Shown: one piece after another, positions 34,460-50,807 of the stretch
How positions within the stretch are numbered: position 1 is the stretch's first letter
Layout: every line of letters starts with the position of its first letter
Assembly (NCBI GenBank): GCA_964444955.1
Contig: CAYUJB010000001.1
Location: forward strand, 1,816 to 65,815
Direction of reading: 5' to 3'
DNA length: 64,000 bases
DNA from: an uncultured Candidatus Saccharibacteria bacterium
GTDB taxonomy: Bacteria; Patescibacteriota; Minisyncoccia; 2-02-FULL-40-12; GWA2-44-9
Position numbers and translations under genes: made by a program
The notes under the pieces: generated by a model
Databases searched by the model: none
What the model was told of the DNA's origin: nothing
What the model saw: the letters and a program-made list of their open reading frames with translations, nothing else

Positions 34460-34465
34460 GCACGT

Positions 34466-34963: not shown

Positions 34964-35481
34964 CAAACCCCGAAAACAATCTAGCTGAACTTCGCACCGT
35001 TGCACTCACCGACAGTGAACGCAGTGCTATGCGCCAGCAACTCCGCGCGTTTACTTCTCCGCATATCGCCTCTCGCGCTCCGTCCTTTTTTGCTCGCCAC
35101 AGCGCCCTGGCATTGGGTATGGCGGTGATACTCATCGGTGGCGTCACAAGCGTCTCGGCAAACTCAGCAAATCCTGGCGATGCACTGTATGGATTTCGTA
35201 CTCACGTGAATGATCGGGTACAAACCGCATTAACTCTTGATGATGAGCGGCGCCTTGATGTTGAGCTCGAGCAAATCCAACGCATGATTGACGGAGAAGA
35301 TTCGTATCGTATGGATGAATTGAGTGTCTCCGCCGACGACGAAACCGATGCCGTCGAAACCGAAGATCGCGAAGATACTCCCGATGAAACCATAGAAGGC
35401 GCGGATGATTTTGATCGTGAGCTCAAAGGTATTGAGCACGATCTCAACGTCGAGTCAGACTCCGGTATCGAGCTGGAATAA
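34960..35481 (+). CDS. putative anti-sigma factor (single TM, acidic C-terminus)
   Basis: Start overlaps the sigma factor stop as ATGA. One TM helix (ALALGMAVILIGGVTSV) and a very acidic extracytoplasmic tail. Assignment is positional inference. Confidence 0.4.
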   Translation: MTNPENNLAELRTVALTDSERSAMRQQLRAFTSPHIASRAPSFFARHSALALGMAVILIGGVTSVSANSANPGDALYGFRTHVNDRVQTALTLDDERRLDVELEQIQRMIDGEDSYRMDELSVSADDETDAVETEDREDTPDETIEGADDFDRELKGIEHDLNVESDSGIELE

Positions 35482-35485
35482 AGGA

Positions 35486-36226: not shown

Positions 36227-36232
36227 AAATTG

Positions 36233-36304
36233 TCAGGCTGCCGGGATTTGAACCCGGAGTCTCACCGACCCGAACGGTGCGTGTTACCGTTACACTACAG
36301 CCTG
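36233..36304 (-). tRNA. tRNA-Pro (anticodon CGG), CCA not encoded
   Basis: Acceptor CAGGCUG/CAGCCUG with C1:G72 as in bacterial tRNA-Pro. D-arm GTGT-AACGGTA-ACAC. Anticodon stem CACCG/CGGTG with loop TTCGGGT (G37). T-arm CCGGG-TTCAAAT-CCCGG. Confidence 0.8.
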
Positions 36305-36435
36305 TTGTATCTGCACAGTATACTGCATTTTACTTGATATTACTAGCATTCTAAGCTCCAGCAGCGCGAGCGCGATTATAAAAAAAACCGAGCACTTCAG
36401 TGCTCGGTTTGGCGTTACTAATTTCTTCCGTCCAG

Positions 36436-37872
36436 CTATACGTAGTATTTTTTCATACGCTCCTGCTCCTCGTCGTCGAGGGCTTTTTTAATGCGCTCAA
36501 GGGCGGTCGCCAGCTCCTCTGGCGTCTTGGCGTCGAGTTTTTTGGCGCGAGCTAAGAGCGTCTCTTTTTCGTTGAGCGTGGGATCGTCGAGCACTTCTGC
36601 CAGCAGCGAGCTCAGGATTAGTCCGAGTTTGGGGCCAGGCGGCATCGCCAGTGCTTCCATAATGTCTTTGCCGTCCACCTTGAGCATCTTCACCGAGATG
36701 GCGTCGTGGCTCACTTTGTCGATCATGTACTTGAGGTGGCGGAGCTTGTACGGTACGGCCTTGGGTGTGCCAGAGCCAATGCGATCCCCTTCTCGCAGTC
36801 GCAACAGGTCGTCGATATTTTCGAGACCAACGTTGGCGATGAGGCGGCGCACGGATGATTCGGTGACTTCACCGACGCTGTAGTAGAACATATGGTAGCG
36901 CACTAAGAGCGCGACTTTATCGCTCAGGTCTTTGGGAAACTTCAGTCGCTCCATGATTTTCTTGGTCATCGTGCCACCGACGGCATCATGCGCATAAAAA
37001 GTGCAGTGACGTCCCTCGCCCCGCTTGGTGCGAGGTTTACCCACATCGTGGAGCAGACACGCCATGCGAACAGCAAACGAGTATTTCTTGTCGGCCGCGT
37101 ACTTCATGGTGCGCAAGTTGTGTTCCCAGACGGAATAGATGTGGTGGAGGTTTTGCTCAACGCCCAATCCTTCGCGCAGTTCAGGGAGAATGTATTTGAG
37201 CAAACCGACATCTTCGAGCAATTGGATGCCCTCGAATGCGCGCGGTGCATCGATAATTTTAATGAGCTCATCGCGCACGCGCTCAATAGAAATTTCCTTG
37301 AGCGCATCGGCATGGGCGATGAGCGCCTTGAGTGTCGCGTCTTCGATGGTGAAATCAAGCGACGTCGCAAACCGCACTGCGCGCATCATGCGCAGCGCAT
37401 CTTCGCCAAATCGTTCCGTTGCTTCCCCTACCGCGCGCAGGGTGCGCGCCTCGATATCGCGCTGCCCGCCATAGGGATCAACGATATCCCCATTACTTCG
37501 TGCCGCGATGGCGTTGACGGTGAAATCGCGGCGCGACAAATCTTCTTCGACGGTCTTTGCAAAGGTAATTGAGTCGGGGTGCCGTTTGTCGGTGTAGCCT
37601 CCTTCGGTACGAAACGGTGTTACCTGCACGGTGCGCACGATAGGGTCATCATCACGCGTCTTGATAGTGACTGTACCGAACGCATTGTCATAGAAATGAT
37701 CAGGAAAGAGCTCCTGGATTTTTTCTGGTGCTGCACCGGTGGTGATATCCCAATCGGTGGGGTGGCGACCCATCAACATGTCGCGCACGCATCCGCCTAC
37801 TATATAGGAAGGGTATCCCGCGTCTTCGAGCGTTTGCAATATCCCGCTTACTTTCGGATGAATTTCTAGCAT
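36436..37872 (-). CDS. cca: CCA-adding tRNA nucleotidyltransferase with an HD domain
   Basis: Pol-beta head YIVGGCVRDMLMGRHPTDWDITT, an HD motif (LLHDVGK), and a C-terminal tRNA-binding region. Confidence 0.8.
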   Translation of the reverse strand: MLEIHPKVSGILQTLEDAGYPSYIVGGCVRDMLMGRHPTDWDITTGAAPEKIQELFPDHFYDNAFGTVTIKTRDDDPIVRTVQVTPFRTEGGYTDKRHPDSITFAKTVEEDLSRRDFTVNAIAARSNGDIVDPYGGQRDIEARTLRAVGEATERFGEDALRMMRAVRFATSLDFTIEDATLKALIAHADALKEISIERVRDELIKIIDAPRAFEGIQLLEDVGLLKYILPELREGLGVEQNLHHIYSVWEHNLRTMKYAADKKYSFAVRMACLLHDVGKPRTKRGEGRHCTFYAHDAVGGTMTKKIMERLKFPKDLSDKVALLVRYHMFYYSVGEVTESSVRRLIANVGLENIDDLLRLREGDRIGSGTPKAVPYKLRHLKYMIDKVSHDAISVKMLKVDGKDIMEALAMPPGPKLGLILSSLLAEVLDDPTLNEKETLLARAKKLDAKTPEELATALERIKKALDDEEQERMKKYYV

Positions 37873-37877
37873 TCGTG

Positions 37878-37952
37878 TGGTGCCCCCGAAAGGAATCGAA
37901 CCTCCATCGTACCCTTAGGACGGGTCTGCTCTATCCGTTGAGCTACGGGGGC
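37878..37952 (-). tRNA. tRNA-Arg (anticodon CCU), CCA encoded
   Basis: Acceptor GCCCCCG/CGGGGGC plus discriminator A and CCA. D-arm GCTC-AACGGATA-GAGC. Anticodon loop GTCCTAA. The anticodon stem has one G27-A43 mismatch. The T-stem GGAGG/CCTTT has two G-U pairs. Confidence 0.65.
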
Positions 37953-38095
37953 GACGGATTACCAAATACCTTGCTAGAGTACCCTTTTTATGATATTTTT
38001 TCAAACGCATTCATTACGAAATGGGCCCATATGAATACATATAGGGCCCGGCGCTCACATCCATAAGATTTAGACAATCTTCTGTATGCTCACTT

Positions 38096-38169
38096 GGGCC
38101 CATAGTGAAGCGGTATCACGCATCCATGGCATGGATGAAGTCGGGGTTCGACTCCCCGTGGGTCCACCA
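38096..38169 (+). tRNA. tRNA-Ala (anticodon GGC), CCA encoded
   Basis: Acceptor GGGCCCA/UGGGUCC with G3:U70. D-arm GTGA-AGCGGTA-TCAC. Anticodon stem CATCC/GGATG with loop ATGGCAT. T-arm CGGGG-TTCGACT-CCCCG. Confidence 0.8.
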
Positions 38170-38218
38170 ACACACAAACGCTCCGCATCGCGCGGAGCGT
38201 TTGTGATATACTCTTGGT

Positions 38219-38950
38219 ATGGATGAAGAGAAGAAGGGTTCAATGAATCTCCCGGAATCGAAGTTGCCCCTGGAGAATGAGATGAAGGATATGCCACTCG
38301 ACTTTCGTTCCAGTTTTCACTGGCGTGTTTTTCGTATCATGGCGGAGTTTGTCGATGGATGGCAGTTTATCACCGACTATAAGAACACGGTCTCTATCCT
38401 CGGTTCAGCCCGTTTTACCGAAGAGAATAAATGGTACCAGGTAGCGCGTGAGTTAGGCGGCTTACTGGCAAAACAGAAAATTGGTGTCGTCACTGGCGGC
38501 GGGCCAGGCATCATGGAGGGCGGCAATCGCGGCGCCTATGAAGCCGGTGGCGAAAGCATCGGCATCACCATTCGCCTCCCCTTCGAGCAGCGCACCAACG
38601 CCTACATCACCAAGAGCCAACCATTCTACTATTTCTTTGTGCGCAAAGTGATGCTCTACTACACCGCGCAGGCGTACGTGTTTTTCCCTGGTGGATTTGG
38701 CACTCTCGATGAATTTTTTGAGCTGGTCACACTGGTGCAGACACACAAGGTAGACCGTGGCTCAGTGCCGATCATTCTGGTGGGCAAGGATTTTTGGGCT
38801 CCCCTGCTCGCCTTCATCAACGACACCGTTTTAGAAAAATATAAAACGATCGATAAAGATGATATGGCGATCTACCACCTCGTCGATACCGCGCAAGAAG
38901 CATTCGATATCATCGCGAAGTACCCGCCTCGCAAGGAGATCTATTACTAG
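38219..38950 (+). CDS. LOG family protein (cytokinin riboside 5'-monophosphate phosphoribohydrolase-like, TIGR00730-type)
   Basis: GGGPGIMEGGNRGA and PGGFGTLDEFFE motifs. The true start may be an internal Met (MNLPESK or MKDMPLD). Confidence 0.75.
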   Translation: MDEEKKGSMNLPESKLPLENEMKDMPLDFRSSFHWRVFRIMAEFVDGWQFITDYKNTVSILGSARFTEENKWYQVARELGGLLAKQKIGVVTGGGPGIMEGGNRGAYEAGGESIGITIRLPFEQRTNAYITKSQPFYYFFVRKVMLYYTAQAYVFFPGGFGTLDEFFELVTLVQTHKVDRGSVPIILVGKDFWAPLLAFINDTVLEKYKTIDKDDMAIYHLVDTAQEAFDIIAKYPPRKEIYY

Positions 38951-38971
38951 TTTCTCGTTCGTCCCAACTAT

Positions 38972-39000
38972 TTGATAAAAGCCGCCAAAAGTGGTAGAAT
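38972..39000 (+). promoter_or_regulatory. promoter for the tRNA-Ser pair (-35 TTGATA, 17-bp spacer, extended -10 TGgTAGAAT)
   Basis: TTGATA at 38972-38977 and TAGAAT at 38995-39000 preceded by TGG. The first tRNA starts at 39012. Confidence 0.45.
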
Positions 39001-39011
39001 TTGCGGCTGAA

Positions 39012-39098
39012 GGAAGCGTGGCTGAGTGGTTGAAGGCACCACACTCGAAATGTGGCATGGGGGTAACCCCATCGGAGGTTCGAATCCTCCCGCTTCCG
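39012..39098 (+). tRNA. tRNA-Ser (anticodon CGA), long variable arm
   Basis: GGAAGCG...CGCUUCC acceptor with discriminator G. Anticodon stem CCACA/TGTGG with loop CTCGAAA. 18-nt variable arm CATGGGGGTAACCCCATC. T-arm GGAGG-TTCGAAT-CCTCC. Confidence 0.8.
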
Positions 39099-39104
39099 CA
39101 GGTA

Positions 39105-39191
39105 GGTGGGGTGGCCGAGTGGTTGAAGGCACCGCTCTTGAAAAGCGGCATACGGGTAACCGTATCGTGAGTTCGAATCTCACCCCCACCG
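39105..39191 (+). tRNA. tRNA-Ser (anticodon UGA), long variable arm
   Basis: GGTGGGG/CCCCACC acceptor with discriminator G. Anticodon stem CCGCT/AGCGG with loop CTTGAAA. Variable arm CATACGGGTAACCGTATC. T-arm GTGAG-TTCGAAT-CTCAC. Confidence 0.8.
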
Positions 39192-39218
39192 CAGTGAAAT
39201 TGGTGTATACTTGCCGAT

Positions 39219-39842
39219 ATGAGTAATGTGCTTGATTTGAAGGATCATCAGCCGGGCGATGCGGTGCCCGAGCAGTTAGTTGCCGAAGTTGCGCCACTCG
39301 CGATTGCGCAGACCACATCGATCGACGAGATGGGTGAGATGCAAAGCGAAGGGTTGCCGCCAGCGACGTTGGCCGGTTTTCATTTTCCCACCGCCACTGA
39401 ATGGACGGCGCATCATCCTCTCCAGGGTTCAGCGCGCAAGCGCCACATGCTTTTCTCTGGGCTCATCGTACTGTTGGGCGTTTTGATTTCACTCTGGCAG
39501 CGCAGTCCCGCAGCGTTTATCGTGCTTCTTATCGGTGCTGGTGTACTCGAGCTACGCGAGCATATGAGTAAGCCCATGACCGTTGGCGTCGATGATCGTG
39601 GCATCAAGATTGATGATCATCGCTATGACCACGCGTCGTTTTCGTCATTTCACATTCACCGTATGCCAGATGATACGCTCGAGTTGAGTCTCCGTTCAGA
39701 TCAGCGCTTCCTCCCCCATCTACGCTTGCCGCTGGGCCAGCAGGATCCTCATCAGCTCCACGCTATTCTTACCCAGTACATTCCCCAGGGCGATCACAAG
39801 ATCCCGCTGGTGGACTACCTGATTCGGAAGCCGCGGGAGTAG
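39219..39842 (+). CDS. membrane protein, possibly a bacterial PH (bPH_2-like) domain protein
   Basis: 207 aa. Two adjacent TM helices (LFSGLIVLLGVLISLW, AAFIVLLIGAGVLEL) followed by a roughly 90-aa soluble domain. Confidence 0.35.
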   Translation: MSNVLDLKDHQPGDAVPEQLVAEVAPLAIAQTTSIDEMGEMQSEGLPPATLAGFHFPTATEWTAHHPLQGSARKRHMLFSGLIVLLGVLISLWQRSPAAFIVLLIGAGVLELREHMSKPMTVGVDDRGIKIDDHRYDHASFSSFHIHRMPDDTLELSLRSDQRFLPHLRLPLGQQDPHQLHAILTQYIPQGDHKIPLVDYLIRKPRE

Positions 39843-39998
39843 CGCACTCGGTAGGACGCTCGCTCCGCTCTCAGTAAAGCGGTTGTGCTCTCGGTATGCG
39901 GACATACCGAGCGACCTCGCTCGAAAGCAAAAGGAACGCGACGCGTTCCTTTTGCTTCACTCACTCAGTGCTCTCGGTAGGACGCTCGCTCCGCTCGC
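39843..39998. repeat. direct repeats derived from the 3' end of tRNA-Arg(GCG), plus palindromic hairpins
   Basis: Copy C3 (39966-39996) shares gtgctctcggtagga with the tRNA 3' end at 40176-40190, and shares ctcggtaggacgctcgctccgctc with copy C1 (39846-39870). A partial copy at 39884 (gtgctctcggta) runs into the palindrome CTCGGTATG-cgga-CATACCGAG. Confidence 0.5.
39929..39953. terminator. bidirectional intrinsic terminator hairpin
   Basis: AAAAGGAACGCG-a-CGCGTTCCTTTT: a perfect 8-bp GC-rich stem flanked by an A-run and a T-run. Confidence 0.5.
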
Positions 39999-40138
39999 TA
40001 TCTCACGCGAGTCGGGCTCGATTGCCTATGGCTATTCTCGCCCTCACTTTCTGAAACCATGCGGTTTCAGTTCTTCCACCACGGGAGAGACTTTCTCTCC
40101 CGACCCCTCTCTGTTCGATTCCTGCCCAGGACGAGTAA

Positions 40139-40170
40139 CAACAACGCCCAGATATATCTGGGCGTTGTTG
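40139..40170. terminator. perfect 32-nt palindrome hairpin at the 3' end of tRNA-Arg(GCG)
   Basis: CAACAACGCCCAGATA|TATCTGGGCGTTGTTG ends 8 nt from the tRNA 3' end, so it is a likely tRNA transcript terminator. Confidence 0.5.
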
Positions 40171-40177
40171 TACCTGT

Positions 40178-40248
40178 GCTCTCGGTAGGAATCGAACCTA
40201 CATTGCTAGCTCCGCAAGCTAGCGTCCTATCCATTGAACGACGAGAGC
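40178..40248 (-). tRNA. tRNA-Arg (anticodon GCG by hand fold), CCA not encoded
   Basis: Acceptor GCTCTCG/CGAGAGC with discriminator A. Anticodon stem CTAGC/GCTAG is perfect, with loop TTGCGGA. T-arm GTAGG-TTCGATT-CCTAC. An Arg GCG anticodon is unusual, so the identity call is moderate. Confidence 0.65.
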
Positions 40249-40391: not shown

Positions 40392-41495
40392 ATGAAATAC
40401 ACATCAGTCGTTGCCGTTTTCGCCGTTGTATTGACGGCCTCTGTCGCTTCGGCGCAGCCGCCGGTCAAGCCGATCGTCTTTGCTGGTCCGTCCGGCAAAC
40501 AGCTGTGCGCCGCCGCTCTCGCATCCGGCAATTACCGGGTGTACGAGCCGACGTACTTCAATCTCCACGACCGAAATCCCACCAACGGGATGGATCGGAT
40601 TCGTGTGCAGCTCGAAGTCGACATGTGTATCAAGATGCGCATTGTCGGCGGCGTGCAGTTCGTCGTGCAGCGTGCCGGGACCTGGTTTCGTGCTCTGAAA
40701 ATGAGCGACGGTTCCTTGGCCCTCTACGCTCGCGATGATTGCGGCAACGAAGTTTTCGATGTCAGCTTTCCCGCTCCCCCGCTCCCAGTTGAGCCCCAGC
40801 GGTTGGTCATTCCGGAAATCGTATCGCAACCCGAGCGTCCTCGGCAGTTGATGACGCCGGTTGTGATCCAACCGCCTCCCCCTCCTGACGACGAAGAGGA
40901 GAGCGAGGGCGATTCTCGCTGGGGCATCACGGCTGGTGCAATGCTCGGCGAGTTTGACTCCGTTCCTATCGGGCGTGCAATCAACAGGATCTCGGGCCGC
41001 ACCGTATGCATGAAGGGTCGCGAGTTTGATCTGGGCGTGGCGCACGGTGACGTCGAGTCATCGGTGTGGCGACTCACCTTCGCTCTCAAATCGATCCGCG
41101 AAGGATCGTTTACCCAGCGTGACTGTCCCAACTGTGGTGAAGAGGTCAAAACGATTGCATCATCGGGGGTGCACGTCCTGGGAGTTCAACTCGAACGGCA
41201 ATTCCGCATCTCAGTACACGAAGGTCGTGGCATCCAGCCCATGGTGGAAGTCCACGTGGGTGCTGGCCTCATCAGTGGTAAAGCGCACGAGCAAACGCTC
41301 CGCAATTCCGTTGTCACCGCAACGCGAAATGTGGATGCAAGCGCGCTGATGAACTCCAAGGTCTTCCCCATCGCAGGGGCGGGTGTCGGCTTCATGGGTG
41401 CACTCAGTGACCATGTCGGCTATGCCGTCACGGTGGCAGGCATTGAGTATCCCGGTCGGTACTACGGGCGCATCGCGCTCACGTACTGGCCGTAA
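40392..41495 (+). CDS. secreted protein with a poly-Pro/acidic linker (hypothetical)
   Basis: Signal peptide MKYTSVVAVFAVVLTASVASA, then a PPPPPDDEEESEGD segment. The C-terminus ends in the aromatic TYWP. Followed by a terminator at 41518-41545. Confidence 0.5.
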   Translation: MKYTSVVAVFAVVLTASVASAQPPVKPIVFAGPSGKQLCAAALASGNYRVYEPTYFNLHDRNPTNGMDRIRVQLEVDMCIKMRIVGGVQFVVQRAGTWFRALKMSDGSLALYARDDCGNEVFDVSFPAPPLPVEPQRLVIPEIVSQPERPRQLMTPVVIQPPPPPDDEEESEGDSRWGITAGAMLGEFDSVPIGRAINRISGRTVCMKGREFDLGVAHGDVESSVWRLTFALKSIREGSFTQRDCPNCGEEVKTIASSGVHVLGVQLERQFRISVHEGRGIQPMVEVHVGAGLISGKAHEQTLRNSVVTATRNVDASALMNSKVFPIAGAGVGFMGALSDHVGYAVTVAGIEYPGRYYGRIALTYWP

Positions 41496-41598: not shown

Positions 41599-42156
41599 TT
41601 ACCGCGTTGCCTGCACGATCGTTATGGTCTTGCCGGCAATCATTCCCGTGACCGTTCGAGCAGGTCCCGAGTTTCCCGATATGAAGAAGTTCGTACTTCC
41701 CTTCCCCAACCCAGACGCCCCACTCGTGATGATTACCCATCCTGGGTTTGAGTTCAGGCTTGCGGTCCACGGACAGTCGGCTCTCGACGCAGTTACCTGG
41801 AGGACTCCGGGCCCTCCTTGATATCCGATTGTGAGCGTAGGATCAACCTTGAGCGTACACGCAAGTGTCGGCGTCGGCGTTGGTGGTGCTGGGGGTGGCG
41901 TCGACTGTGGAGGCGCCACGGTCGGCGTAGGAGCCGGCGGCCGAGGCGTCGGCTGTGGAGGCGCCGGCGTAGGCGCAACCGTCGGAGGTCGCGGCGTCGG
42001 GGTTGCTGTCACTGACGGCCCTGATGGTGTACCGCAGCCGTCCTTGTCGCACCCGCATCCGGGCACGACGACAACGACACAAAGAACGATGATGAGACTG
42101 ATTGTTCGGAATAGACGTGAGATCACGGGCTTCCCTCCTGGGTTGTTAAAAAGCAT
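41599..42156 (-). CDS. secreted protein with a Pro/Thr-rich linker and a C-terminal beta-rich domain
   Basis: N-terminal TM/signal (ISLIIVLCVVVVVP), a roughly 60-aa PT-rich linker (PTPRPPTVAPTPAPPQPTPRPPAPTPT), and a 100-aa C-terminal domain. Confidence 0.5.
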   Translation of the reverse strand: MLFNNPGGKPVISRLFRTISLIIVLCVVVVVPGCGCDKDGCGTPSGPSVTATPTPRPPTVAPTPAPPQPTPRPPAPTPTVAPPQSTPPPAPPTPTPTLACTLKVDPTLTIGYQGGPGVLQVTASRADCPWTASLNSNPGWVIITSGASGLGKGSTNFFISGNSGPARTVTGMIAGKTITIVQATR

Positions 42157-42245: not shown

Positions 42246-42274
42246 TTGACAAAAAATAATCAGTAGTATATACT
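42246..42274 (+). promoter_or_regulatory. candidate promoter (-35 TTGACA, 17-bp spacer, -10 TATACT) in an AT-rich leader
   Basis: TTGACA at 42246-42251 and TATACT at 42269-42274, roughly 60 nt upstream of the surface-protein gene at 42335. Confidence 0.3.
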
Positions 42275-42334: not shown

Positions 42335-43615
42335 ATGAACATAAAAACCTCGTTTTTGCAGGGTTTCCGAGTATCAACCGTTATGGGACTTTTGAGCCTT
42401 CTTTTACTGTCTCCGCTCATGTTCGTGCCCCAAGCTAACGCCGACACTCTTTTGGTGTCTGCTGGGCTGACCGCTTCCCCTGGTACGATATGTATCGGCC
42501 AGTCGACGCATTTGAACTGGACATCTACGAATGCCACAAGCATCGTCATCAGCCCAGGGGTTGGCTCTGTTAACCCGTACGGAGGATTGGATGTGTATCC
42601 TACTCAGACTACGACATATACCATCACCGCGAGCAACACTACGGGCGGATATGGTTCATCGAACACCGGATCGGTTACGGTGTACGTCACTGGTTCTTGC
42701 GGCACCCCCACCCCTACTCCGTACAACAACGCACTCTACTGCTCGGCTACCTACTCCTACGCAAACTCTGGTGACCTCGTTTCCTTCAACGCATGGGGTG
42801 GTAACGGTACCTTCTCGTGGAATGCGACCGATGGTACCCCTTCGTACGGTTACGGTTCTTCCTTTTCGTCCCGCTTCTACAACCCGTCCTGGTACTCGGT
42901 GAGCCGTATGGTGACGGTCACGAGTGGCTATCAGACTGCCAACTGCAATGTGACCATCTATGCCGGTGGTACGACATGGACACCAACCCCAACGCCCTGG
43001 GTGAATCCCGCAGTTGATCTTGCGTTAACACAGGTTGGCCGCAACGTGACCCGTGGGCAGAGTGGTGAGTATGCTTCTTTGACGGCTCGCGGTGGCGACA
43101 CACTCGACCTGATCGTGCGCACGCGCTCGGTGAACAACTCGTACCTCTACAACACCTTTGTGACTGAGCAGCTCCCTACCGGTTTCAACTACATCCCTGG
43201 TTCTACCACGGTCAATGGGTATGTTGTTGCCGATGGTATCACCTCGACCGGCATCAATGTGGGTACTGTTGCTCCGTATGCACAGACAACCATCAAGTTC
43301 TCGGTTCGCGTTGATGGTGCCTACGTTCCTACCTGGGGCACTACGACCGTCAACAGCATCGCACAGGCACGCGCCGACAATGTTGTGACGCGCTCGGTAT
43401 CCTTGCCGATTACCCTCGGATCAAACGCGAGTATCGCAAACATTTCTTCCGTGAAGACCGGTCCTACCGACTCGCTCTGGCTCGCCCTCATGGTTGCCTT
43501 TTTGGCAACGGGTGCTTACGCCGTGTACCTGCGCACTGATCGTTTCGGTCGCCGCATGGCGCTCGCCGAAGTCGCTACACTCGCTCGCACCTCCGGTCCG
43601 AACTTTGTGAAGTAA
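42335..43615 (+). CDS. cell-surface protein with an Ig-like domain, a DUF11-like domain and a C-terminal VKTGP-TM sorting signal
   Basis: Signal peptide. Cys-bracketed Ig-like domain (CSATYSYANSGD...ANCNVTIYAG). DUF11-like block (RGGDTLDLIVRTRSVNN...EQLPTGFNYIPGSTTVNGY). C-terminus SSVKTGPTD, then TM LWLALMVAFLATGAYAVYL, then RTDRFGRR. Confidence 0.6.
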   Translation: MNIKTSFLQGFRVSTVMGLLSLLLLSPLMFVPQANADTLLVSAGLTASPGTICIGQSTHLNWTSTNATSIVISPGVGSVNPYGGLDVYPTQTTTYTITASNTTGGYGSSNTGSVTVYVTGSCGTPTPTPYNNALYCSATYSYANSGDLVSFNAWGGNGTFSWNATDGTPSYGYGSSFSSRFYNPSWYSVSRMVTVTSGYQTANCNVTIYAGGTTWTPTPTPWVNPAVDLALTQVGRNVTRGQSGEYASLTARGGDTLDLIVRTRSVNNSYLYNTFVTEQLPTGFNYIPGSTTVNGYVVADGITSTGINVGTVAPYAQTTIKFSVRVDGAYVPTWGTTTVNSIAQARADNVVTRSVSLPITLGSNASIANISSVKTGPTDSLWLALMVAFLATGAYAVYLRTDRFGRRMALAEVATLARTSGPNFVK

Positions 43616-43636
43616 CTCGCGAGATTCTCGCAAAAC

Positions 43637-43669
43637 AAAACCACCCACTCTACGGGGTGGTTTTGTTTT
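43637..43669 (+). terminator. Rho-independent terminator (AAAACCACCC-actctacg-GGGTGGTTTT plus gtttt)
   Basis: 10-bp stem followed by a T-run. A TATACT -10-like hexamer at 43672-43677 follows directly, ahead of the sortase gene. Confidence 0.5.
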
Positions 43670-43683
43670 GGTATACTACGTCT

Positions 43684-44340
43684 ATGCGTCTTCACCATCG
43701 CGGGCGGACGATTGCTATTCGCTTGTTTGTTATTTTCATTATTACCTTTGCCGGAGCGTTTTTCTTGTTGAACATTAAGTTTGTCGAAAAGAACGTGCAG
43801 TACATTCTGGCGCCCAGCACCATCACGTCGCGCGACACGCTCGGTGACGCAATCCGCCTCCTCCCCCTCTCTGAGAAGATCGAAGAGAAACCACTTTCCA
43901 ACAAGGCGACACTCGTGATTGATAAGCTGGGCATTCGCGCGCCCATCGTGTTCAATGTTGCCAACGACAACGACACCATCTACAAGCAGCTGGAGCAAGG
44001 TGTGGTGCATTATAGCGACACCGCCAAGCCGGGACTCCCCGGTGTGTCCATTGTGCTGGGGCACAGCTCTGCTTACCCGTGGTACAAGGGCGACTACGGT
44101 GCGGTCTTTGCGCTCTTGAGCAAGCTCGCTGTGGGCGATCGTTTCTATGTGCAGTACGACGATAACCGCACGTTCGTGTATGAGATGACGCAGTCGCTCA
44201 TTTTCAACCCCTTCGTCAAAGACGATCGCCTCACCGCACTTGAGAACGCACCAGGAAGCACTCTGCTTTTGATTAGCTGCTACCCGGTGGGAACGAACTA
44301 CAAACGTATTGCGATTCAGGCGATACTAGTGAAGATATAA
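43684..44340 (+). CDS. sortase (class uncertain)
   Basis: N-terminal TM anchor. Catalytic His in SIVLGHSSAY, Cys in the TLxTC-like STLLLISCYPVG, and Arg in YKRIAIQAILV. Start set to ATG 43684 because the ORF-track start at 43657 lies inside the upstream terminator. Confidence 0.75.
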   Translation: MRLHHRGRTIAIRLFVIFIITFAGAFFLLNIKFVEKNVQYILAPSTITSRDTLGDAIRLLPLSEKIEEKPLSNKATLVIDKLGIRAPIVFNVANDNDTIYKQLEQGVVHYSDTAKPGLPGVSIVLGHSSAYPWYKGDYGAVFALLSKLAVGDRFYVQYDDNRTFVYEMTQSLIFNPFVKDDRLTALENAPGSTLLLISCYPVGTNYKRIAIQAILVKI

Positions 44341-44366
44341 GACATGGAGCATGGTACACTATACAT

Positions 44367-46421
44367 ATGAATGAGCGCCTCGAGAGTATTCGAGAATTTT
44401 TTCGAGAAAATCCACGCATGTGGATTGTGGCTGTTGGCGCGGTGCTCATCGCCGGTGGCGTCGCGTGGTATGTATTCCGTGGAACGTCGGTTGATCTTGG
44501 TAAATCGAATGCCCAACAGAGTGGCGGAGTTTGTGGTGACGGGGTGTGTGATGTAACAGAAGATAGCACATGCCCATCAGACTGTGGTCCCGGAACAGGC
44601 GGGGGTGGAGGCGTTGTTTGTAGTGCGACATTTCGATCGTGCCAAGGCACCGATGTGTTTCAGCACTACTCAAATTGCAACGGAGCTATCATCGAGCAGT
44701 GTGCAAGCGGGTGCAATCCGGGTAACGCCGATAACACCGCGGCTTTCTGTATCGGATCTTCGACGACACCGGGAATCACGCCGAAGGCTACACCCCCAAC
44801 CCCCCCACCTCCTACTCCGAGCGGCGACTGCACCAAGGGAGCAGATGGGTTGTGGTACTGCAAAAACCTGTCCTGTGGTCTAGCGGGCAATGGCTCCAAT
44901 CCCCCTGCAGGCCCGGCCAGTAGTATCCAGGTAGTCCAGTACCGCACCGTGTGTGACGACGTCGAGGGTCCTAATAATCCTCAAGTTGGGTGCAAGATCT
45001 TTATGGATGCGACGCCAAAGATTGGCGGACAAGAAGGATATCCACCACGAGATCCGTCCTGGAGCTGCACCAACTCGATGACCATCCCCGAGACCGACGG
45101 TCGCTACTGCTACACGCCATTTGGGAAAACAACCGTCACGGGTCCGGTGACCTGCTGCGCCAACACGGGACTACCGGGTGATTGCGTTTCATTTACCGTG
45201 CAACCCCGGTCGGGAGGCACCACGTCCCCCACCGCCAGCCCTGCGCCTGCGCTGCTGAAAGTCTCGTGCAGCGCAAACGCGGCAACGCTCACGTGGAATA
45301 TTCCTGCGCGTGCAAACTCGAATGCCGTGCAGCGTATGGTCCCCGGTGGTACGTGGACATGGGTGCTCCAAGACGCTACGGGAGCGCAAACTAGCTTTGT
45401 TGATTCGCCCTTGATCGCGGGTGCGCAGTGGCGCGTGAAGTCTGCGCCAAGCGTCGCGTCCAATGTGGTTTCCTGCGCTGGTCCGGTGAGCACACCCATT
45501 TCTGGTATTCCGCCCGCACAAGGCGATCCGGTTGAGTGTTTTCCCGCTCGTCAATCAGTGAGTCTCAATGAGACTGCACATCTGCAGGCGCAAGGCGGTA
45601 CGAATGTGTTCACGTGGAATGTGACGCAAGGAGGAGCAATTCAGGAGGGTGGCAACGAGTACATCGGTGTGTCATATCGTACATCTGGATTGAAAACATT
45701 ACGCGTCAGTAGTGGCGGCACGAGCGCAACGTGCACGATCGATGTGGCCGGAAGCATCGCGGGTGGTTCGCCGACGCCAACGCCTTCAAGTACCGTTGCC
45801 CCAGGACAGGCGTCATTGGTAGTTGAGAAGACCGCGCAAAATACTACTACCGGAGATCCCGTTGAGCGATCAGCCGTTACGGTTTTTCCTGGTCAAACGG
45901 TACAGTTTCGAGTCCGAATTACCAACGTGGGGTCGGCGCCCGCTATCGGGGTGAGCGCAGAGGATACGCTCCCTGCTGGTATGAGTTTTGTACCAGATTC
46001 AACCACGTTGAATGGGCAGACCGTTTCGGATGATTCGATTATCTTTGGCGGGCTTACTGTAGGAACGGTCGCACCTGGAGCGTCTACCATTGTCGAATGG
46101 TCAGCTGTTGCCGATCAGGCGGCTACACTTGCTTCGGGTCCCAATCGATCTACGCCCGAAGTGGTGGTGACCACGGATAATACTGATACCGGTGGAACCG
46201 ACAAGACGCGGGCGCAGATGCCGGTGGTGGTGTATGGTGCCGGCTCATCGGCGGGTGCCGGCGAAGTTCCAACGGGTCCGGGAGGTGCAGTAATCGTGGC
46301 GCTTATGACGGCCGCTGCTCTCACCCTTCTCTACAGCGGCTACACACGCTCCCCTACGTATCGACGTCGTGAGGCAGAGGACGTGAGCGAAGATCCGGGC
46401 CCACTCGATTTTCGTAGCTAA
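44367..46421 (+). CDS. large surface protein (Cys-rich module, PT linker, Ig-like and DUF11-like domains) with a C-terminal EVPTGP-TM-YTRSPTYRRREAEDVSEDPGPLDFRS signal
   Basis: 684 aa. N-terminal TM (MWIVAVGAVLIAGGVAWYVF), PT linker (ITPKATPPTPPPPTPSGD), Cys-bracketed Ig-like repeat (CFPARQS...CTIDVAG), DUF11-like block (TVFPGQTVQFRVRITNVGSAPAIGVSAEDTLPAGMSFVPDST). Confidence 0.6.
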   Translation: MNERLESIREFFRENPRMWIVAVGAVLIAGGVAWYVFRGTSVDLGKSNAQQSGGVCGDGVCDVTEDSTCPSDCGPGTGGGGGVVCSATFRSCQGTDVFQHYSNCNGAIIEQCASGCNPGNADNTAAFCIGSSTTPGITPKATPPTPPPPTPSGDCTKGADGLWYCKNLSCGLAGNGSNPPAGPASSIQVVQYRTVCDDVEGPNNPQVGCKIFMDATPKIGGQEGYPPRDPSWSCTNSMTIPETDGRYCYTPFGKTTVTGPVTCCANTGLPGDCVSFTVQPRSGGTTSPTASPAPALLKVSCSANAATLTWNIPARANSNAVQRMVPGGTWTWVLQDATGAQTSFVDSPLIAGAQWRVKSAPSVASNVVSCAGPVSTPISGIPPAQGDPVECFPARQSVSLNETAHLQAQGGTNVFTWNVTQGGAIQEGGNEYIGVSYRTSGLKTLRVSSGGTSATCTIDVAGSIAGGSPTPTPSSTVAPGQASLVVEKTAQNTTTGDPVERSAVTVFPGQTVQFRVRITNVGSAPAIGVSAEDTLPAGMSFVPDSTTLNGQTVSDDSIIFGGLTVGTVAPGASTIVEWSAVADQAATLASGPNRSTPEVVVTTDNTDTGGTDKTRAQMPVVVYGAGSSAGAGEVPTGPGGAVIVALMTAAALTLLYSGYTRSPTYRRREAEDVSEDPGPLDFRS

Positions 46422-46494
46422 AATGTTGATATGTCGGTGTATAAGAAATCTCCCAGGGTGTATACTCAAGGGAGATTTTCTTAATCGTATATCC

Positions 46495-46932
46495 ATGAAT
46501 ACACGGCAAACCATTCTCGTATCGATTGCAATTCTTCTTGTCGCTGTACTAGCTCTCTGGTGGTACTTCGGATTTTCGCTTGAGTTTATGAAATTCTTTG
46601 CCGCCGATTCAGCAACAACCAATACTGCCACCACGAGTGCGTCCCCTACAGTTTCACCATTGGGAGATAATTCTACCGCAAGTGTAGTAGTTGCCTGCTC
46701 GCCGCGCCTACAGAGTGTAAAGACCGGTGTGGCTGCGCAGTTCACCGCCAGTGGTGGATCTGGCAGCTATGAATGGTTCGCACCAAGTGGCACGCCAGAT
46801 ACCGGAACCGCGAAAGACTTTTCGGTAGTGTATACAGTGGCGGGTACCAAGAAGGTCACGGTGCAAGCTGCGCGGGGAGATGATTCAGGGAAAGTAGACA
46901 GCGTTGAGTGCACGGTACAAGTGGCCCCATAA
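46495..46932 (+). CDS. small anchored protein with the GFSLEFMKFFAA N-terminal motif and one Cys-bracketed Ig-like domain
   Basis: Start at ATG 46495 (MNTRQTILVSIAILLVAVLALWWYFGFSLEFMKFFAAD). Single domain CSPRLQSVKTGVAAQFTASGGSGSYEWFAP...VECTVQVAP. A TATACT hexamer lies at 46461-46466. Confidence 0.5.
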   Translation: MNTRQTILVSIAILLVAVLALWWYFGFSLEFMKFFAADSATTNTATTSASPTVSPLGDNSTASVVVACSPRLQSVKTGVAAQFTASGGSGSYEWFAPSGTPDTGTAKDFSVVYTVAGTKKVTVQAARGDDSGKVDSVECTVQVAP

Positions 46933-46939
46933 TGTGAAC

Positions 46940-49021
46940 ATGCAATCACCCCTCTCAGTAATCGCGGCATTCTTTCGTGCTAATAAGACATTCTTTACGA
47001 TTCTCTTGGGAGTCGTATTCGTGACCGCCGGATACTTTTGGTGGCAGGCAGGATTCACGCTGGATGTGAGTCGTTTCTTTGCGGCAGGTTGCGATGCTGA
47101 GCAGCTCAACGGTACATTTCGTCGCGGGCAAGTTTCGATCGTCAATAATAATGATTCCACGTGTGATGTGCACGTAACGGTGTGGGAGGTGTATTACCCG
47201 GCATCTGATCCACGTTTTATTAGTACCCAGGTGCTTTTCGATCAGGCATATGAGGGGTCGGTGGCACCCGGAGCCACTGCCACATTATCAGTGGATATCC
47301 CGGACTGTGTGTACCAGTATGATATTGGAACCGGAACGCCGCGCAGTACCCTCCCCTACGGATACGATCTTATCGATAGCGGTATCGTTTCACCCACCGG
47401 CTTGTACTGCGGCGAAACGGGTCCGACTCCAACCCCAACTCGTACCCCAACCCCATCCGTGTCTCCGACCCCGACACCTATAGCACTTGCGTGTGCAGTG
47501 GTACCGACGCAAGTTGTCGTGGGTTCGCCTGCAACCGTTACAGCAACGGGCGGCACCGGCGCGTACACCTGGTCTGCACCTGGCGGCACACTATCTTCGA
47601 CTACTACAAATCCTGCCAATGTCTCCTATGCAACTGCGGGCAGTAAGACGGTGACTGTGACAAGCGGTGGCAATCAAAACACCTGCTCGGTCGTGGTTGT
47701 TGCCGTGACGTTACCAACTCCTACGCCATCTGTTTCTGCATCGCCGTCTCCGACGGTTTCCCCACTCACGTGCGCTCCTTCGAGTCAGACAGTGGCTATT
47801 GGAGCTCAGGTACAAGCCGCGTCATCTGGCGGCGGAACGCAGATCTATAGTTGGTCTGCACCTGGAGGAAATCCGAGTACGTCCACGAATACCGGCTCTT
47901 TGTTTACCACATCGTATGGTGCCGCGGGCAGCTTCATAATTACTGTTACTGGTGGCGGGCAGAGCGCTACGTGCGCAGTGACGGTGCAGGGCCCCACGGC
48001 ATCCCAGCCGCATATCTTACTAACGAAACTTGCAAGAAATATCACCCATGGCTCCAATGAAGCCGACAGCGTTACCGCTTCACCGGGTAATGATATCGAG
48101 TTCTCGCTCCGCGTTCTCTCTGATGGTGTCGGCACGGTGGTGGGAGCAACCATTCGCGACGCTCTTCCGGCAGGCCTGACCTACGTTCGGGGATCAACGA
48201 GAATTGATTCCGCAACTGCCGCGGACGGCATCGTTTCCACAGGACTCGCCCTGGGCGATATAGCAGCCGGGCGCGCAATCACGATTCGATTCCGCGCCCT
48301 CGTATCCCCTGCTTCGTTCTTTGCTGCCGGAACCAGCGTGCTCACCAATACTGCGTATGCGCGCGGCACGAATACGCCAGAAGTGAGTGATGTCGCGTTT
48401 GTTTCAGTGATGAACGCTCCAGCGCAGCTAAGTGCTTCTCTTGCCAAGATGGGCCGTAACACCACGCGCGGTGAAACTGGTGAGCATTCGCCCGTTCGAT
48501 CCTCTCCAGGTGAGACGATTCAATTTGTATTACGAGCTCGCAATACGTCCTCGGGGACACTAACCAACGTTCTACTACGAGATATTCTTCCTTCGGAGAT
48601 TACGCTTGTTCCGGGTAGCGTTCGTATTGGCACCACGACTGCTTCAGACACGCTCGTGACCACAGGTGCATCATTGGGAACGCTCGTGCCAGGACAGGAG
48701 GTGCTCGTTACCTTTTCCGGAGTCGTAGCTGCAGCCGGAGCTCTTCCTGCAGGAGCTACTACGGTGCTTAATACTGCAACGCTTATGGGAACCGGAATCG
48801 GTACTATTACCGCGCAGCTGCCAGTCGTGATTACGAATGGTGGCGTTGCGGTGCCACCCGTGAACACTGGCCCCGCTGAAACCACTATGCTTGCACTTAT
48901 CATTTCCGCAGTCGTTACACTGCTCTACGTGGGGTATACGAGTACGGATACGTATCGACGACACGAAGCGAGCATACTCGCACAAGAGTCGCGCAACGAG
49001 CCATCTGATTTTAATTCCTAA
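46940..49021 (+). CDS. large surface protein: GFTLDVSRFFAA N-terminal motif, PT linker, two Ig-like repeats, DUF11-like domains, C-terminal PVNTGP-TM-YTSTDTYRRHEA signal
   Basis: Start at ATG 46940 (MQSPLSVIAAFFRANKTFFTILLGVVFVTAGYFWWQAGFTLDVSRFFAAG). PT linker PTPTPTRTPTPSVSPTPTP. Two Cys-bracketed repeats (CAVVPTQ..., CAPSSQT...). Tail SILAQESRNEPSDFNS. Confidence 0.6.
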   Translation: MQSPLSVIAAFFRANKTFFTILLGVVFVTAGYFWWQAGFTLDVSRFFAAGCDAEQLNGTFRRGQVSIVNNNDSTCDVHVTVWEVYYPASDPRFISTQVLFDQAYEGSVAPGATATLSVDIPDCVYQYDIGTGTPRSTLPYGYDLIDSGIVSPTGLYCGETGPTPTPTRTPTPSVSPTPTPIALACAVVPTQVVVGSPATVTATGGTGAYTWSAPGGTLSSTTTNPANVSYATAGSKTVTVTSGGNQNTCSVVVVAVTLPTPTPSVSASPSPTVSPLTCAPSSQTVAIGAQVQAASSGGGTQIYSWSAPGGNPSTSTNTGSLFTTSYGAAGSFIITVTGGGQSATCAVTVQGPTASQPHILLTKLARNITHGSNEADSVTASPGNDIEFSLRVLSDGVGTVVGATIRDALPAGLTYVRGSTRIDSATAADGIVSTGLALGDIAAGRAITIRFRALVSPASFFAAGTSVLTNTAYARGTNTPEVSDVAFVSVMNAPAQLSASLAKMGRNTTRGETGEHSPVRSSPGETIQFVLRARNTSSGTLTNVLLRDILPSEITLVPGSVRIGTTTASDTLVTTGASLGTLVPGQEVLVTFSGVVAAAGALPAGATTVLNTATLMGTGIGTITAQLPVVITNGGVAVPPVNTGPAETTMLALIISAVVTLLYVGYTSTDTYRRHEASILAQESRNEPSDFNS

Positions 49022-49022
49022 T

Positions 49023-50807
49023 ATGCAAATTCCGCAAAAATTGAAAGATGCATTCGGTGTGGTGCAGCAGAAATTCTCCAGTGTATTTGATGCAACGCTG
49101 CGTTTCTATCGAGCCAACACTGCGATATCACTGAGCGCATTTACGATTTTTAGCGTATTGCTGATCATGTGGGCACGCATCGGATTTACCTTTGACGTGA
49201 GTCGCTTCTTCGCAGCAGAGGTGCATACCCCATCGGCACTCAACGTGCAGTGCGGTGCAACGCAGAATGTACTTACCTGGACACTGCCCGCGGGACATGA
49301 TTCCAATAGCATCATTCGAAACGTCGATGGTGGCACTGGTGTCTGGGTGTGTGGTGGGCCAAGCAATATCGCTCCCTGCACAACGCTCTCGGTGGCAACC
49401 TATACTGATAGAAATATCCAACCAGGACACACGTATGCCTATCGACACAAGGCGTGGGCGGATACGCCGTCAAACACCGTGACCTGTTCGACGGTTACTG
49501 CACCCACCCCGACTCCTTCCACAACTAGTACACCGACGCCGACGCCATCGCTTACCCCCACTCCCACACCACTCATTCCTCCCGCGGGGACCATTCTTGG
49601 CGCTTGTACTGGTGGTCGAAATCCAGTTATTACGGTACGTTACAGTAAGTTTCCTCCCCCAGGCGGAGATCAGACCGTCAACAGCAATGGCATGAACAAG
49701 ACCACCACTCCATTGGGTGGCACACCGACCGTGGTGCAATTGCCAGATTATAATCCTGTCGATCGAGGGCAATATTGGGAATTTCAGGATTCGCAAGTCA
49801 TCAGCGGCTATACCTATTCGTATCGAGCCAAATACACGCCAGCAGTGGGCACGAATACCATTACGTTTGTCGCATCAGAAGCGAATTGTGGTCCGTCGCT
49901 TCCTCCTCCGAGTCCCACGCCGTCTACAACCCCGACACCGATCTCCACACCGACACCGAGCGCAACACCCACTCCCTCCCCCACGCCACTGGTGTGCGCA
50001 CCCGCAACCCAGACAGTAGCGGCAGGCCAGGTGTTCTCGCTCACTGCGCAGGGTGGTACCGGGGTATATCAGTGGACCTACGGTGCATCGCAGACTGCTA
50101 CCGGAGCGGCATTGGTGACATCGCTCGCCACACCGGGGACGAGTGGGATTACACTCACATCTGGCGGTCAGTCGACAACCTGCCAGGTAATTGTACAGCC
50201 GGCGGTTGTAGCTCGAGGTACTGCAGCAGTTTCTAGTACGGGAAAGAACGTCTCAACGAATGGTGTCGAGTCTTCTTCAGTTCAGGTTCGTACCGGCCAG
50301 CAACTTCAGGTGCTGATACGCGCTCGGAATGCGGCAACACAAGCAAATATTACTGGCGTTCTGGTGCGCTCGCAGCTCCCCGAAGGTTTAGTATATGTAC
50401 CCGGATCAACGCTTATCGCAGGAGTTGCGGCAGGAAGCGACGTAATCGTCACCACGGGGCTACCCCTTGGCGCTATTGGTCCTGGTCAAGAAATTCTCGT
50501 AACGTATCGCGCGACAGTGAATGCCGCTGCCTTTGCGGTTGGTACGACAGGCGTACGCGTGCAATCATCCGTGCAAGCCACTGACGTGCCAGGTGCAAGC
50601 GATGATCTTGATGTTGTCGTGACAAAGCCGACGCCCGGCACATCGGGGACGGTCCAAACTGGTCCCGGCGATGCGCTCTTGGCGGCATTTCTGGTCTCGT
50701 CAATCATCACACTGCTCTACGTCTCCTACACGCATACATCGACATACAAGCGTCACGAGATTGGGGCGATTACTGAAGATCGTGACCCCCTCGACTTCAG
50801 AAGCTAA
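49023..50807 (+). CDS. large surface protein: GFTFDVSRFFAA N-terminal motif, PT linkers, Ig-like repeat, DUF11-like domain, C-terminal TVQTGP-TM-YTHTSTYKRHE...DPLDFRS signal
   Basis: Start at ATG 49023 (MQIPQKLKD...) one nt after the upstream stop. The ORF-track start at 48891 overlaps the previous gene. Motifs TFDVSRFFAAE, PTPTPSTTSTPTPTPSLTPTPTP, CAPATQTVAAGQ...CQVIVQP. Confidence 0.6.
   Translation: MQIPQKLKDAFGVVQQKFSSVFDATLRFYRANTAISLSAFTIFSVLLIMWARIGFTFDVSRFFAAEVHTPSALNVQCGATQNVLTWTLPAGHDSNSIIRNVDGGTGVWVCGGPSNIAPCTTLSVATYTDRNIQPGHTYAYRHKAWADTPSNTVTCSTVTAPTPTPSTTSTPTPTPSLTPTPTPLIPPAGTILGACTGGRNPVITVRYSKFPPPGGDQTVNSNGMNKTTTPLGGTPTVVQLPDYNPVDRGQYWEFQDSQVISGYTYSYRAKYTPAVGTNTITFVASEANCGPSLPPPSPTPSTTPTPISTPTPSATPTPSPTPLVCAPATQTVAAGQVFSLTAQGGTGVYQWTYGASQTATGAALVTSLATPGTSGITLTSGGQSTTCQVIVQPAVVARGTAAVSSTGKNVSTNGVESSSVQVRTGQQLQVLIRARNAATQANITGVLVRSQLPEGLVYVPGSTLIAGVAAGSDVIVTTGLPLGAIGPGQEILVTYRATVNAAAFAVGTTGVRVQSSVQATDVPGASDDLDVVVTKPTPGTSGTVQTGPGDALLAAFLVSSIITLLYVSYTHTSTYKRHEIGAITEDRDPLDFRS

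Follow-up and report, generated by a model that had tools for sequence, protein, structure and literature searches.

In the 64-kb stretch of contig CAYUJB010000001.1 analyzed here (the window), six plus-strand genes at positions 42335–50807 encode a sortase and five further proteins, G1–G5, four of which end in a shared C-terminal domain that begins with V-x-T-G-P. We read this locus, with a probability of about 0.8, as a lineage-specific sortase-substrate system, in which a chromosomal operon with one promoter encodes a sortase together with its own V-x-T-G-P substrates. The operon probably fixes the main adhesin-like proteins on the cell surface. The genes and the site at which their transcription probably begins are as follows.

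42246–42274, + strand: promoter-like site TTGACA-17-TATACT, 11 of 12 positions matching, 60 bp upstream of G1; probable start of the operon
42335–43615, + strand: G1, 426 aa, surface protein, sorting domain from VKTGP (43451)
43684–44340, + strand: sortase, 218 aa
44367–46421, + strand: G2, 684 aa, Cys-rich surface protein, sorting domain from VPTGP (46266)
46495–46932, + strand: G3, 145 aa, without sorting signal
46940–49021, + strand: G4, 693 aa, surface protein, sorting domain from VNTGP (48860)
49023–50807, + strand: G5, 594 aa, surface protein, sorting domain from VQTGP (50652)

The gaps between these genes measure 1–73 bp. An initial annotation, made from the DNA alone, had described the sortase and the five genes around it, and all six gene models hold. 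Five agree exactly with public gene calls; G1 has 426 aa in one source and 410 aa at NCBI, where its start lies 16 codons later. A weak terminator-like hairpin with a T-run is present at 43645–43660, within the 68-bp gap between G1 and the sortase, and the sortase and the downstream genes could perhaps be expressed less than G1.

A C-terminal sorting domain with V-x-T-G-P and a long tail

G1, G2, G4 and G5 each terminate in V-x-T-G-P, a hydrophobic stretch and a tail of 25–29 residues, as initially annotated, while G3 and all of its orthologues lack an end of this type. The ends of G2, G4 and G5 have the common form ...TLLY-x-x-YT-x-[ST]-x-x-Y-[RK]-R-x-E...[DP]-x-DF-[RN]-S, and G1 carries a related but distinct subtype of its own (YLRTDRFGRR...GPNFVK). 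The helix end LLY and the tail end D-P-x-D-F-R-S, which had been assigned to all four proteins, are found in G2 and G5 and approximately in G4, which closes in EPSDFNS; they do not describe the tail of G1. A six-frame translation of the window (128,000 residues) contains five matches to V.TGP, of which four are the gene ends and the fifth lies on the antisense strand inside G2. Among the 93 open reading frames (ORFs) of at least 100 aa in the window, a sorting-type motif is combined with a C-terminal helix only in G1, G2, G4 and G5.

The four window tails were turned into a profile, which was run against a set of 1.84 billion representative proteins. A word-indexed protein search with the tail alignment had given two matches, the query being too short for the index, and the exhaustive profile search was used in its place. 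This search, of a kind that the initial annotation had proposed, returned 243 clusters at E ≤ 1e-3, 164 of them at E ≤ 1e-10; of 151 proteins inspected among the best matches, 148 have the match at their extreme C-terminus. The resulting consensus covers about 57 residues. It comprises x-V-x-T-G-P-G-[DE]-A, then a helix of 18 residues that ends in LLY-x-x-Y-T, the basic residues [FY]-R-R-[RH]-E and, past this cluster, some 18 residues that close in D-P-[LM]-D-F-R-S at the C-terminus. The P1 Thr is 47–52 residues from the C-terminus. Counted over 146 representatives, the positions of the domain are occupied as follows.

P4: variable (G, T, Q, A, P and others), the Leu position of LPXTG
P3: V 120, I 14
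P2: variable, Pro in 43/146
P1: T 143/146
P1′: G 146/146
P2′: P 141/146
P3′: G 124/146
P4′: D or E 131/146
P9′: A 141/146
P20′: Y 144/146
P23′: Y 143/146
P24′: T 133/146
P30′–P33′: R-R-[RH]-E consensus
Last residues: D-P-[LM]-D-F-R-S, with F third from the end in 135/146

The motif is indeed none of LPXTG, LAXTG and NPQTN; P4 is variable, P3 is Val or Ile in 134 of 146 representatives, and TIGR01167 finds no match in the four window tails even at E ≤ 10. No Pfam or NCBIfam model covers the domain. The known CTERM and LPXTG models in NCBIfam, run at E ≤ 10 on the window tails and on ten tails from related loci, were rejected as descriptions of this lineage: the PEP-CTERM, PGF-CTERM, GlyGly-CTERM and GVDTG-CTERM models are not matched (the best is GVDTG_CTERM, E = 7.2), and no srtB-signal model matches the window tails.

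The tail is both longer and more conserved than the usual basic stub, as had been proposed. In addition to its roughly 18 extra residues, it shows a mean identity of 66% between orthologues, compared with 38–47% for the ectodomains; for G5 and its orthologue in locus L001, the tail is 90% identical and the ectodomain 35–54%. This contrast suggests selection on the signal. The claim that the motif is undescribed stands only in part. Val at P3 before T-G is present in the Streptococcus pyogenes signals EVPTG, QVPTG and VVPTG (PMC3019223), while the nearly invariant Pro after the Gly (P2′) and the tail of about 25 residues ending in D-F-R-S are new as far as we searched the literature.

A true sortase of no defined class

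The product of 43684–44340 is a true sortase that belongs to no defined class. It scores 68.8 bits against the Pfam family Sortase (PF04203, cut-off 26.6) and aligns with profile positions 1–124 of 125. The His, Cys and Arg that had been recognized as canonical are His127 (LGHSS), Cys199 (LISCYP) and Arg208 (YKRIA); they are invariant in 16 homologues of 62–82% identity and align with the catalytic residues of Streptococcus pneumoniae SrtC-1 (2w1j/2wts). From its N-terminal membrane helix the chain runs through a conserved DAIRLLPL stretch into the catalytic domain, and it stops 10 residues past Arg208 without a C-terminal helix. The protein is thus predicted to be a membrane-anchored cysteine transpeptidase of the sortase superfamily.

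The AlphaFold2 model of the sortase has an overall predicted local distance difference test score (pLDDT) of 76.7, with block means of mostly 81–92 in the catalytic core. Linker 39–67, which holds DAIRLLPL, is poorly predicted (pLDDT < 50); this candidate lid region contains no DP[WFY] motif. Foldseek returned 127 PDB matches at E ≤ 0.001 with this model, the top 50 listed all being sortases, and gave a probability of 1.0 against many sortase structures. Class C pilus sortases rank highest (5e-12), and the leading matches include Actinomyces oris SrtC-1, Corynebacterium diphtheriae SrtA and group B Streptococcus (GBS) SrtC1. By sequence, the closest solved sortase is S. pneumoniae SrtC-1, a weak match with E of about 1e-4. 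An assignment to class by fold was rejected because classes E, D and A follow the pilus sortases within about two orders of magnitude. Furthermore, the sortase misses the NCBIfam class cut-offs (score/cut-off: D 45.7/165, SrtD 42.2/140, F 36.6/166, C 33.6/160, E 33.6/160, GN 23/158), and the class A and class B models do not match it at E ≤ 0.01.

Coupling of signal and sortase across genomes

A scan for the sortase in one genome per GTDB species yielded 58 loci. A lack of co-occurrence between the signature and this sortase family had been named beforehand as a result that would refute the idea; co-occurrence was found throughout. Specifically, wherever the sortase is at least 40% identical to that of the window (29/29 species loci), one to six neighbors end in [VIA]-x-T-G-x followed by a helix and a tail of this family. 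Metagenome contigs found by the tail alone show pieces of the same operon in 16 of 16 cases, and the sortase is present in all four of those that reach far enough upstream.

The order G1-sortase-G2-G3-G4-G5 recurs in L004, L005, L007, L029, L061 and L074, and G1 orthologues are always encoded directly upstream of the sortase. Relatives with 40–55% sortase identity usually have a single, G1-like substrate upstream, so that a G1-type substrate plus sortase looks like the ancestral unit and G2–G5 like a later expansion. In some relatives the array has expanded, a single sortase being surrounded by six or seven genes with the tail (L008 1050–13753 and L068 1483–13699), and their motifs include TPTG, TATG and AQTG.

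We then surveyed the DNA flanking these sortases, 852 kb with 891 ORFs from 59 genomes. A terminal [VI]xTG followed by a helix is found in 58 ORFs, and one of the close variants TPTG, TATG and AQTG in another three; no LPxT[GASN], LAxTG, NPxT[NG] or [SP]PxTG signal is present among the 891 ORFs. The co-occurrence and the lack of LPXTG-type signals in these 852 kb support the dedicated sortase-substrate system that had been proposed, with cleavage as a predicted activity. A grouping with housekeeping LPXTG sortases, the other refuting result named beforehand, was likewise not found, given this survey, the silence of the class A and class B models and the low scores of all other class models.

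The V-x-T-G core extends to sortases of only 30–37% identity. There, large proteins end in VLGAxT[VI]xTG[PAF], a helix and long tails unlike those of the window:

L035, 10668–13496
L037, 1909–4578
L040, 2637–6056
L043, 10635–12695
L048, 10664–13144
L052, 10658–12877
L055, 662–2890, minus strand

V-x-T-G therefore appears to be a general solution of Patescibacteria, combined with lineage-specific tails. The tails of these large proteins are 35–55 residues long, very basic and hydrophobic (e.g. ...LRLKLMTLRFKQVYL) and unrelated to the D-F tail; they are a second sorting-domain family without an existing model. L054, a distant relative from outside the candidate phyla radiation (CPR), has TVKTG with a short classic tail, which passes TIGR01167 at 18.7 versus 15.9.

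In distant relatives, a membrane-anchored CAP/SCP protein of about 300 aa (PF00188, E 1e-15 to 2e-19) is encoded between substrate and sortase. Directly upstream of the sortase, it occupies the following positions, among others:

L012, 9077–9985
L014, 9073–9990
L015, 9074–9973
L017, 9098–9994
L021, 9023–9979
L026, 8960–9952
L030, 9014–9976
L048, 9034–9999

No CAP/SCP homologue is encoded anywhere in the 64-kb window, and the protein may be a third component that was lost or moved in the lineage of the window. L023 contains two near-identical sortase copies about 1.3 kb apart (1309–1935 and 3245–3739), the second without the N-terminal helix; the pair could reflect a duplication or an assembly artefact.

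Sortase homologues were found in Patescibacteria assemblies labelled Yanofskybacteria or Paceibacterota, and we read the ultra-small bacterium of the window as a Paceibacteria/Yanofskybacteria-like member of the Patescibacteria. The same operon is present in such assemblies and in others labelled 'uncultured Candidatus Saccharibacteria' (L001, L003, L004, L014 and others), and the Saccharibacteria labels of these operon-bearing assemblies look unreliable.

Substrate ectodomains and a shared N-terminal module

In the substrates, Pfam and NCBIfam detect only DUF11-type repeats and PKD domains. We read the substrates as large proteins built from Ig-like modules of these two kinds. The five proteins had been described as paralogues, which is not borne out as a simple full-length relationship; what they share instead is DUF11 and PKD-like domains, the tail and an N-terminal module. 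The N-terminal module, which belongs to G2–G5, had not been noticed in the initial annotation and is new as far as the literature was searched.

G1 has a Sec signal peptide (..PQANA|D) and a DUF11-type repeat, and its orthologues likewise have ordinary cleavable signal peptides. G2 starts with a signal-anchor (FFRENP plus helix), followed by a PKD-like domain and a DUF11 domain. G3 consists of a helix module at residues 1–37 (46495–46605; WWYFGFSLEFMKFFAA), a disordered linker and one PKD-like immunoglobulin domain. The AlphaFold2 model of G3 shows a helix at residues 3–36, a low-confidence segment at 38–61 and a confident beta-sandwich at 67–144, and its best fold matches are the PKD domains of ColG and ColH. 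G4 combines the N-terminal module (FFRAN, helix and WWQAGFTLDVSRFFAA; 46940–47086) with two PKD-like and two DUF11 domains, and G5 combines it (FYRAN, helix and WARIGFTFDVSRFFAA; 49023–49217) with a weak DUF11-type repeat, a sub-threshold NCBIfam match.

The module of the G2–G5 type combines F[FY]R[AE]N on the cytoplasmic side with a helix and the juxtamembrane motif W.R.GF[ST][LF][DE]..[RK]FFA[AS], and it is seen in orthologues of L004, L005, L007, L008, L009 and L029. Within G3, no part is better conserved than the juxtamembrane motif. The motif also occurs in at least 61 of 97 full-length representatives of the G2/G4/G5 type that carry the tail; in G2 of this genome it is degenerate (module weaker at 44367–44510). 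In the AlphaFold2 model of G3, the motif is predicted to continue the membrane helix. We considered GF[ST]L[DE] as a prepilin-peptidase site or a donor beta-strand and rejected both, since it follows the helix, its acidic residue is at +4 rather than +5, and the modelled membrane helix runs on through the motif.

A Pfam scan detects no Cna_B or SpaA pilin domains in the substrates, and a regular-expression search detects no YPKN-type pilin motif and no E-box. Lys119 of G3 is invariant. The ectodomains are very poor in Lys, with 4 Lys in the 426 aa of G1 and 4 in the 693 aa of G4. The PKD-like modules start and end with Cys, which suggests disulfides. G2 holds 24 Cys.

Proposed mechanism

By analogy with characterized sortases, we propose that the substrate would be exported via Sec and held in the membrane by its C-terminal helix and basic (RRR) cluster. 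Cys199 of the sortase would then attack the Thr-Gly bond to form a thioacyl intermediate. An amine, most likely that of a peptidoglycan precursor, would resolve this intermediate and leave the ectodomain covalently attached to the wall, while the GP...DFRS fragment would remain in the membrane. The peptidoglycan precursor is the likeliest acceptor because a class A penicillin-binding protein (PBP) is encoded in the window (9318–11408). Specificity would be set by Val at P3 in place of the Pro of LPXTG, with P4 free and Pro at P2′ as an added determinant. The long cytoplasmic tail would be part of the signal; it may be read by a cytoplasmic or membrane partner, or the cleaved remnant may itself be functional. 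A pairing of the conserved, basic N-terminus of the sortase (MRLH[HN]R.R), on its cytoplasmic side, with acidic tails was rejected as a general rule, because the sortases of L015–L018 and L021 lack the extension and their substrates keep a ...KFNF tail.

Some points weigh against a dedicated anchoring system of this kind. Cleavage, the bond that would be cut and the acceptor are predictions from knowledge of the sortase family, and any role of the tail is likewise a proposal. G2–G5 have no canonical cleavable signal peptide, and their N-terminal helix runs into the conserved juxtamembrane motif; mature G2–G5 might thus keep an N-terminal membrane tether, uncommon among proteins anchored to a wall. 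No known sorting signal needs a tail of nearly this length, so the C-terminal domain may do more, or something else. The survey covers flanking DNA, which leaves room for other sortases or substrates elsewhere in the genome. Finally, the sortase model is of low confidence at residues 39–67, where any lid-like element would sit.

Comparison with known systems and alternative readings

The anchoring system proposed here resembles LPXTG signals and the class A, D, E and F sortases in its Thr-Gly motif, hydrophobic helix and basic cluster, in an N-terminally anchored sortase with a His-Cys-Arg triad, and in a cell envelope that has peptidoglycan but shows no sign of an outer membrane. It differs from them in that Leu at P4 is replaced by variable residues, P3 is Val rather than Pro or Ala, and P2′ is a nearly invariant Pro; the basic cluster is followed by conserved residues rather than by a short stub. 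The distance of the Thr from the C-terminus (47–52 residues) is also different, as are the sortase scores, all below class cut-offs, and the silence of TIGR01167. Substrate screens in Clostridioides difficile sought motifs only 17–45 residues from the C-terminus, and in vitro SrtB did not cleave NVQTG, a signal that had been proposed for C. difficile CbpA (PMC4155245). The exosortase, archaeosortase and rhombosortase CTERM systems give no model match, and the linked enzyme here is a sortase. The system would be expected to work like sortase anchoring, yet it falls outside the LPXTG signal and outside every sortase class.

The best-surviving alternative, which we nevertheless hold to be unlikely, is that the sortase is a polymerase of a pilus or fibre, resembling class C or the class B enzymes of S. 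pyogenes, and joins G1, G2, G4 and G5 through a lysine or an N-terminal amine. The product would be a heteropolymeric surface fibre instead of, or besides, wall-anchored monomers. G3, with the N-terminal module but no sorting signal, could serve in it only as acceptor or base, and its invariant Lys119 would suit such a role. The nearest enzymes by sequence and fold are pilus sortases (S. pneumoniae SrtC-1, A. oris SrtC-1, C. diphtheriae SrtA and GBS SrtC1), which are likewise embedded in operons, and one sortase among several substrates in fixed order recalls a pilus islet. However, the lead of class C over classes E, D and A in E-value is small, at about two orders of magnitude, the class C hidden Markov model (HMM) gives 33.6 against a cut-off of 160, and the sequence matches are weak. 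The sortase also has no C-terminal membrane helix, and no DP[WFY] lid is identified in a region modelled at pLDDT < 50. On the substrate side, the G3 domain has a PKD rather than a pilin fold, and the substrates lack Cna_B/SpaA-type domains, YPKN-type motifs and an E-box, although a non-canonical acceptor lysine is possible. Many relatives (L015–L028) have a single substrate beside the sortase, which fits anchoring better than a multi-subunit fibre.

The fibre reading also draws on the FCT pilus system of S. pyogenes, whose pilins carry EVPTG, QVPTG and VVPTG signals handled by the class B sortases Spy0129/SrtC2 (PMC3019223, PMC11231552), EVPTG being cleaved at T|G (PMC3019223). As in the window, Val precedes x-T-G at P3, and a dedicated sortase is encoded amid its substrates; the EVPTG of G2 is the sorting motif of the major pilin Spy0128 (PMC3019223). 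The S. pyogenes sortase is nevertheless of class B, and its signals have Pro at P2 and a short tail, whereas here no class B model matches, Pro occupies P2 in only 43 of 146 representatives, and pilin domains and motifs are missing. Phylum and envelope differ as well.

A reading that goes further than anchoring, and that we think rather improbable, takes the 57-residue C-terminal domain, with the conserved D-F at the end of its cytoplasmic tail, and the N-terminal module of the G2–G5 type as a two-ended address, read by a dedicated partner, which would guide an assembly step unparalleled in the sortase biology of Gram-positive bacteria. One possibility is that the four proteins are joined in a set order into a structure that is rooted in the membrane and crosses the wall, with G3, which lacks the signal, as its base. 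Another is a signalling or quality-control role of the cleaved GP...DFRS remnant. In Streptococcus gordonii, as summarized in PMC11326707, a membrane-retained remnant of a sorting signal (the 'C-peptide') is sensed; by analogy only, this is a precedent for a functional remnant and could explain selection on the tail. That remnant, as the same summary has it, derives from a short ordinary LPXTG signal and is sensed in the membrane, whereas no sensor kinase is linked to the operon described here. If the two-ended address were true, the main surface structure with which these episymbiont-like bacteria contact a host would be encoded by this operon.

It is very unlikely that the enzyme is instead a general housekeeping sortase of broad specificity, with its main LPXTG-like substrates elsewhere and the V-x-T-G-P neighbors as a subset. 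The tiny genomes, which probably encode one sortase each, and the presence of the sortase family in more than half of CPR genomes (PMC6744442) would suit such an enzyme. On the other hand, the 852-kb survey gave 0 LPXTG, LAXTG, NPXTN or [SP]PXTG signals versus 58 [VI]xTG, the sortase has no class A match, and every tail-seeded contig maps back to this operon. Least credible of all, the C-terminal domain could be a permanent, uncleaved membrane anchor with a cytoplasmic interaction motif, the sortase acting elsewhere or being merely co-regulated: sortase sorting does not require a long conserved cytoplasmic tail with a D-F end, and G2–G5 have conserved N-terminal helices as well, but the most conserved feature of the domain is the Thr-Gly at the outer face of the helix, the scissile pair of sortase signals, which is kept even in distant lineages with unrelated tails, and the domain occurs strictly next to a sortase whose catalytic triad is intact.

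Implications of the signature

Patescibacteria make up a large share of bacterial diversity and are thought to live attached to other cells. To our knowledge, almost nothing has been established about their surface biology. The literature that we searched on sortases in Patescibacteria, CPR or Parcubacteria mentions only that a sortase is present and describes no sorting signal; more than half of CPR genomes encode one (PMC6744442). Standard tools miss the proteins described here because they contain no Leu-Pro, because the motif is too far from the C-terminus and because the LPXTG HMM gives no score. The V-x-T-G-P and tail signature could allow covalently displayed surface proteins, candidate host adhesins, to be listed in hundreds of uncultured lineages, and it supplies a peptide on which the enzyme can be assayed. 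An enzyme of this specificity (P4 free, Val at P3, Pro at P2′) would be orthogonal to SrtA and might find use in protein ligation. The long cytoplasmic tail, paired with the N-terminal module, raises a mechanistic question beyond the current sortase paradigm.

Genomic neighborhood

The surrounding genes are housekeeping genes, including those for trigger factor, NusA, a type IV pilus ATPase, DnaA, UvrD, CCA-adding enzyme, a LOG-family protein, RecG, HolA and PolA. The LOG...RecG flanks of the operon are syntenic in many relatives, which argues that the operon is chromosomal and vertically inherited rather than a mobile island. The ORFs at 40392–41495 and 41599–42156 (minus strand) were rejected as additional operon components and lie outside the conserved unit, because they are limited to the closest relatives. 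Other features of the window are as follows.

9318–11408: class A PBP
13016–14575: DnaA
41518–41537: terminator-like hairpin that closes the gene preceding G1

Seven tRNA genes (Ala x2, Pro, Arg x2, Ser x2) are spread over 33680–40248, shortly before the operon. Farther upstream, a VirB4/TraG-like ATPase gene (18555–20309, minus strand) adjoins two large ORFs without a Pfam match (21831–24542 and 24521–26143), and a TSP3-repeat protein is encoded in the same stretch (26140–27081, minus strand); this minus-strand stretch (18555–27081) may be a type IV secretion-like or conjugation-like cluster.

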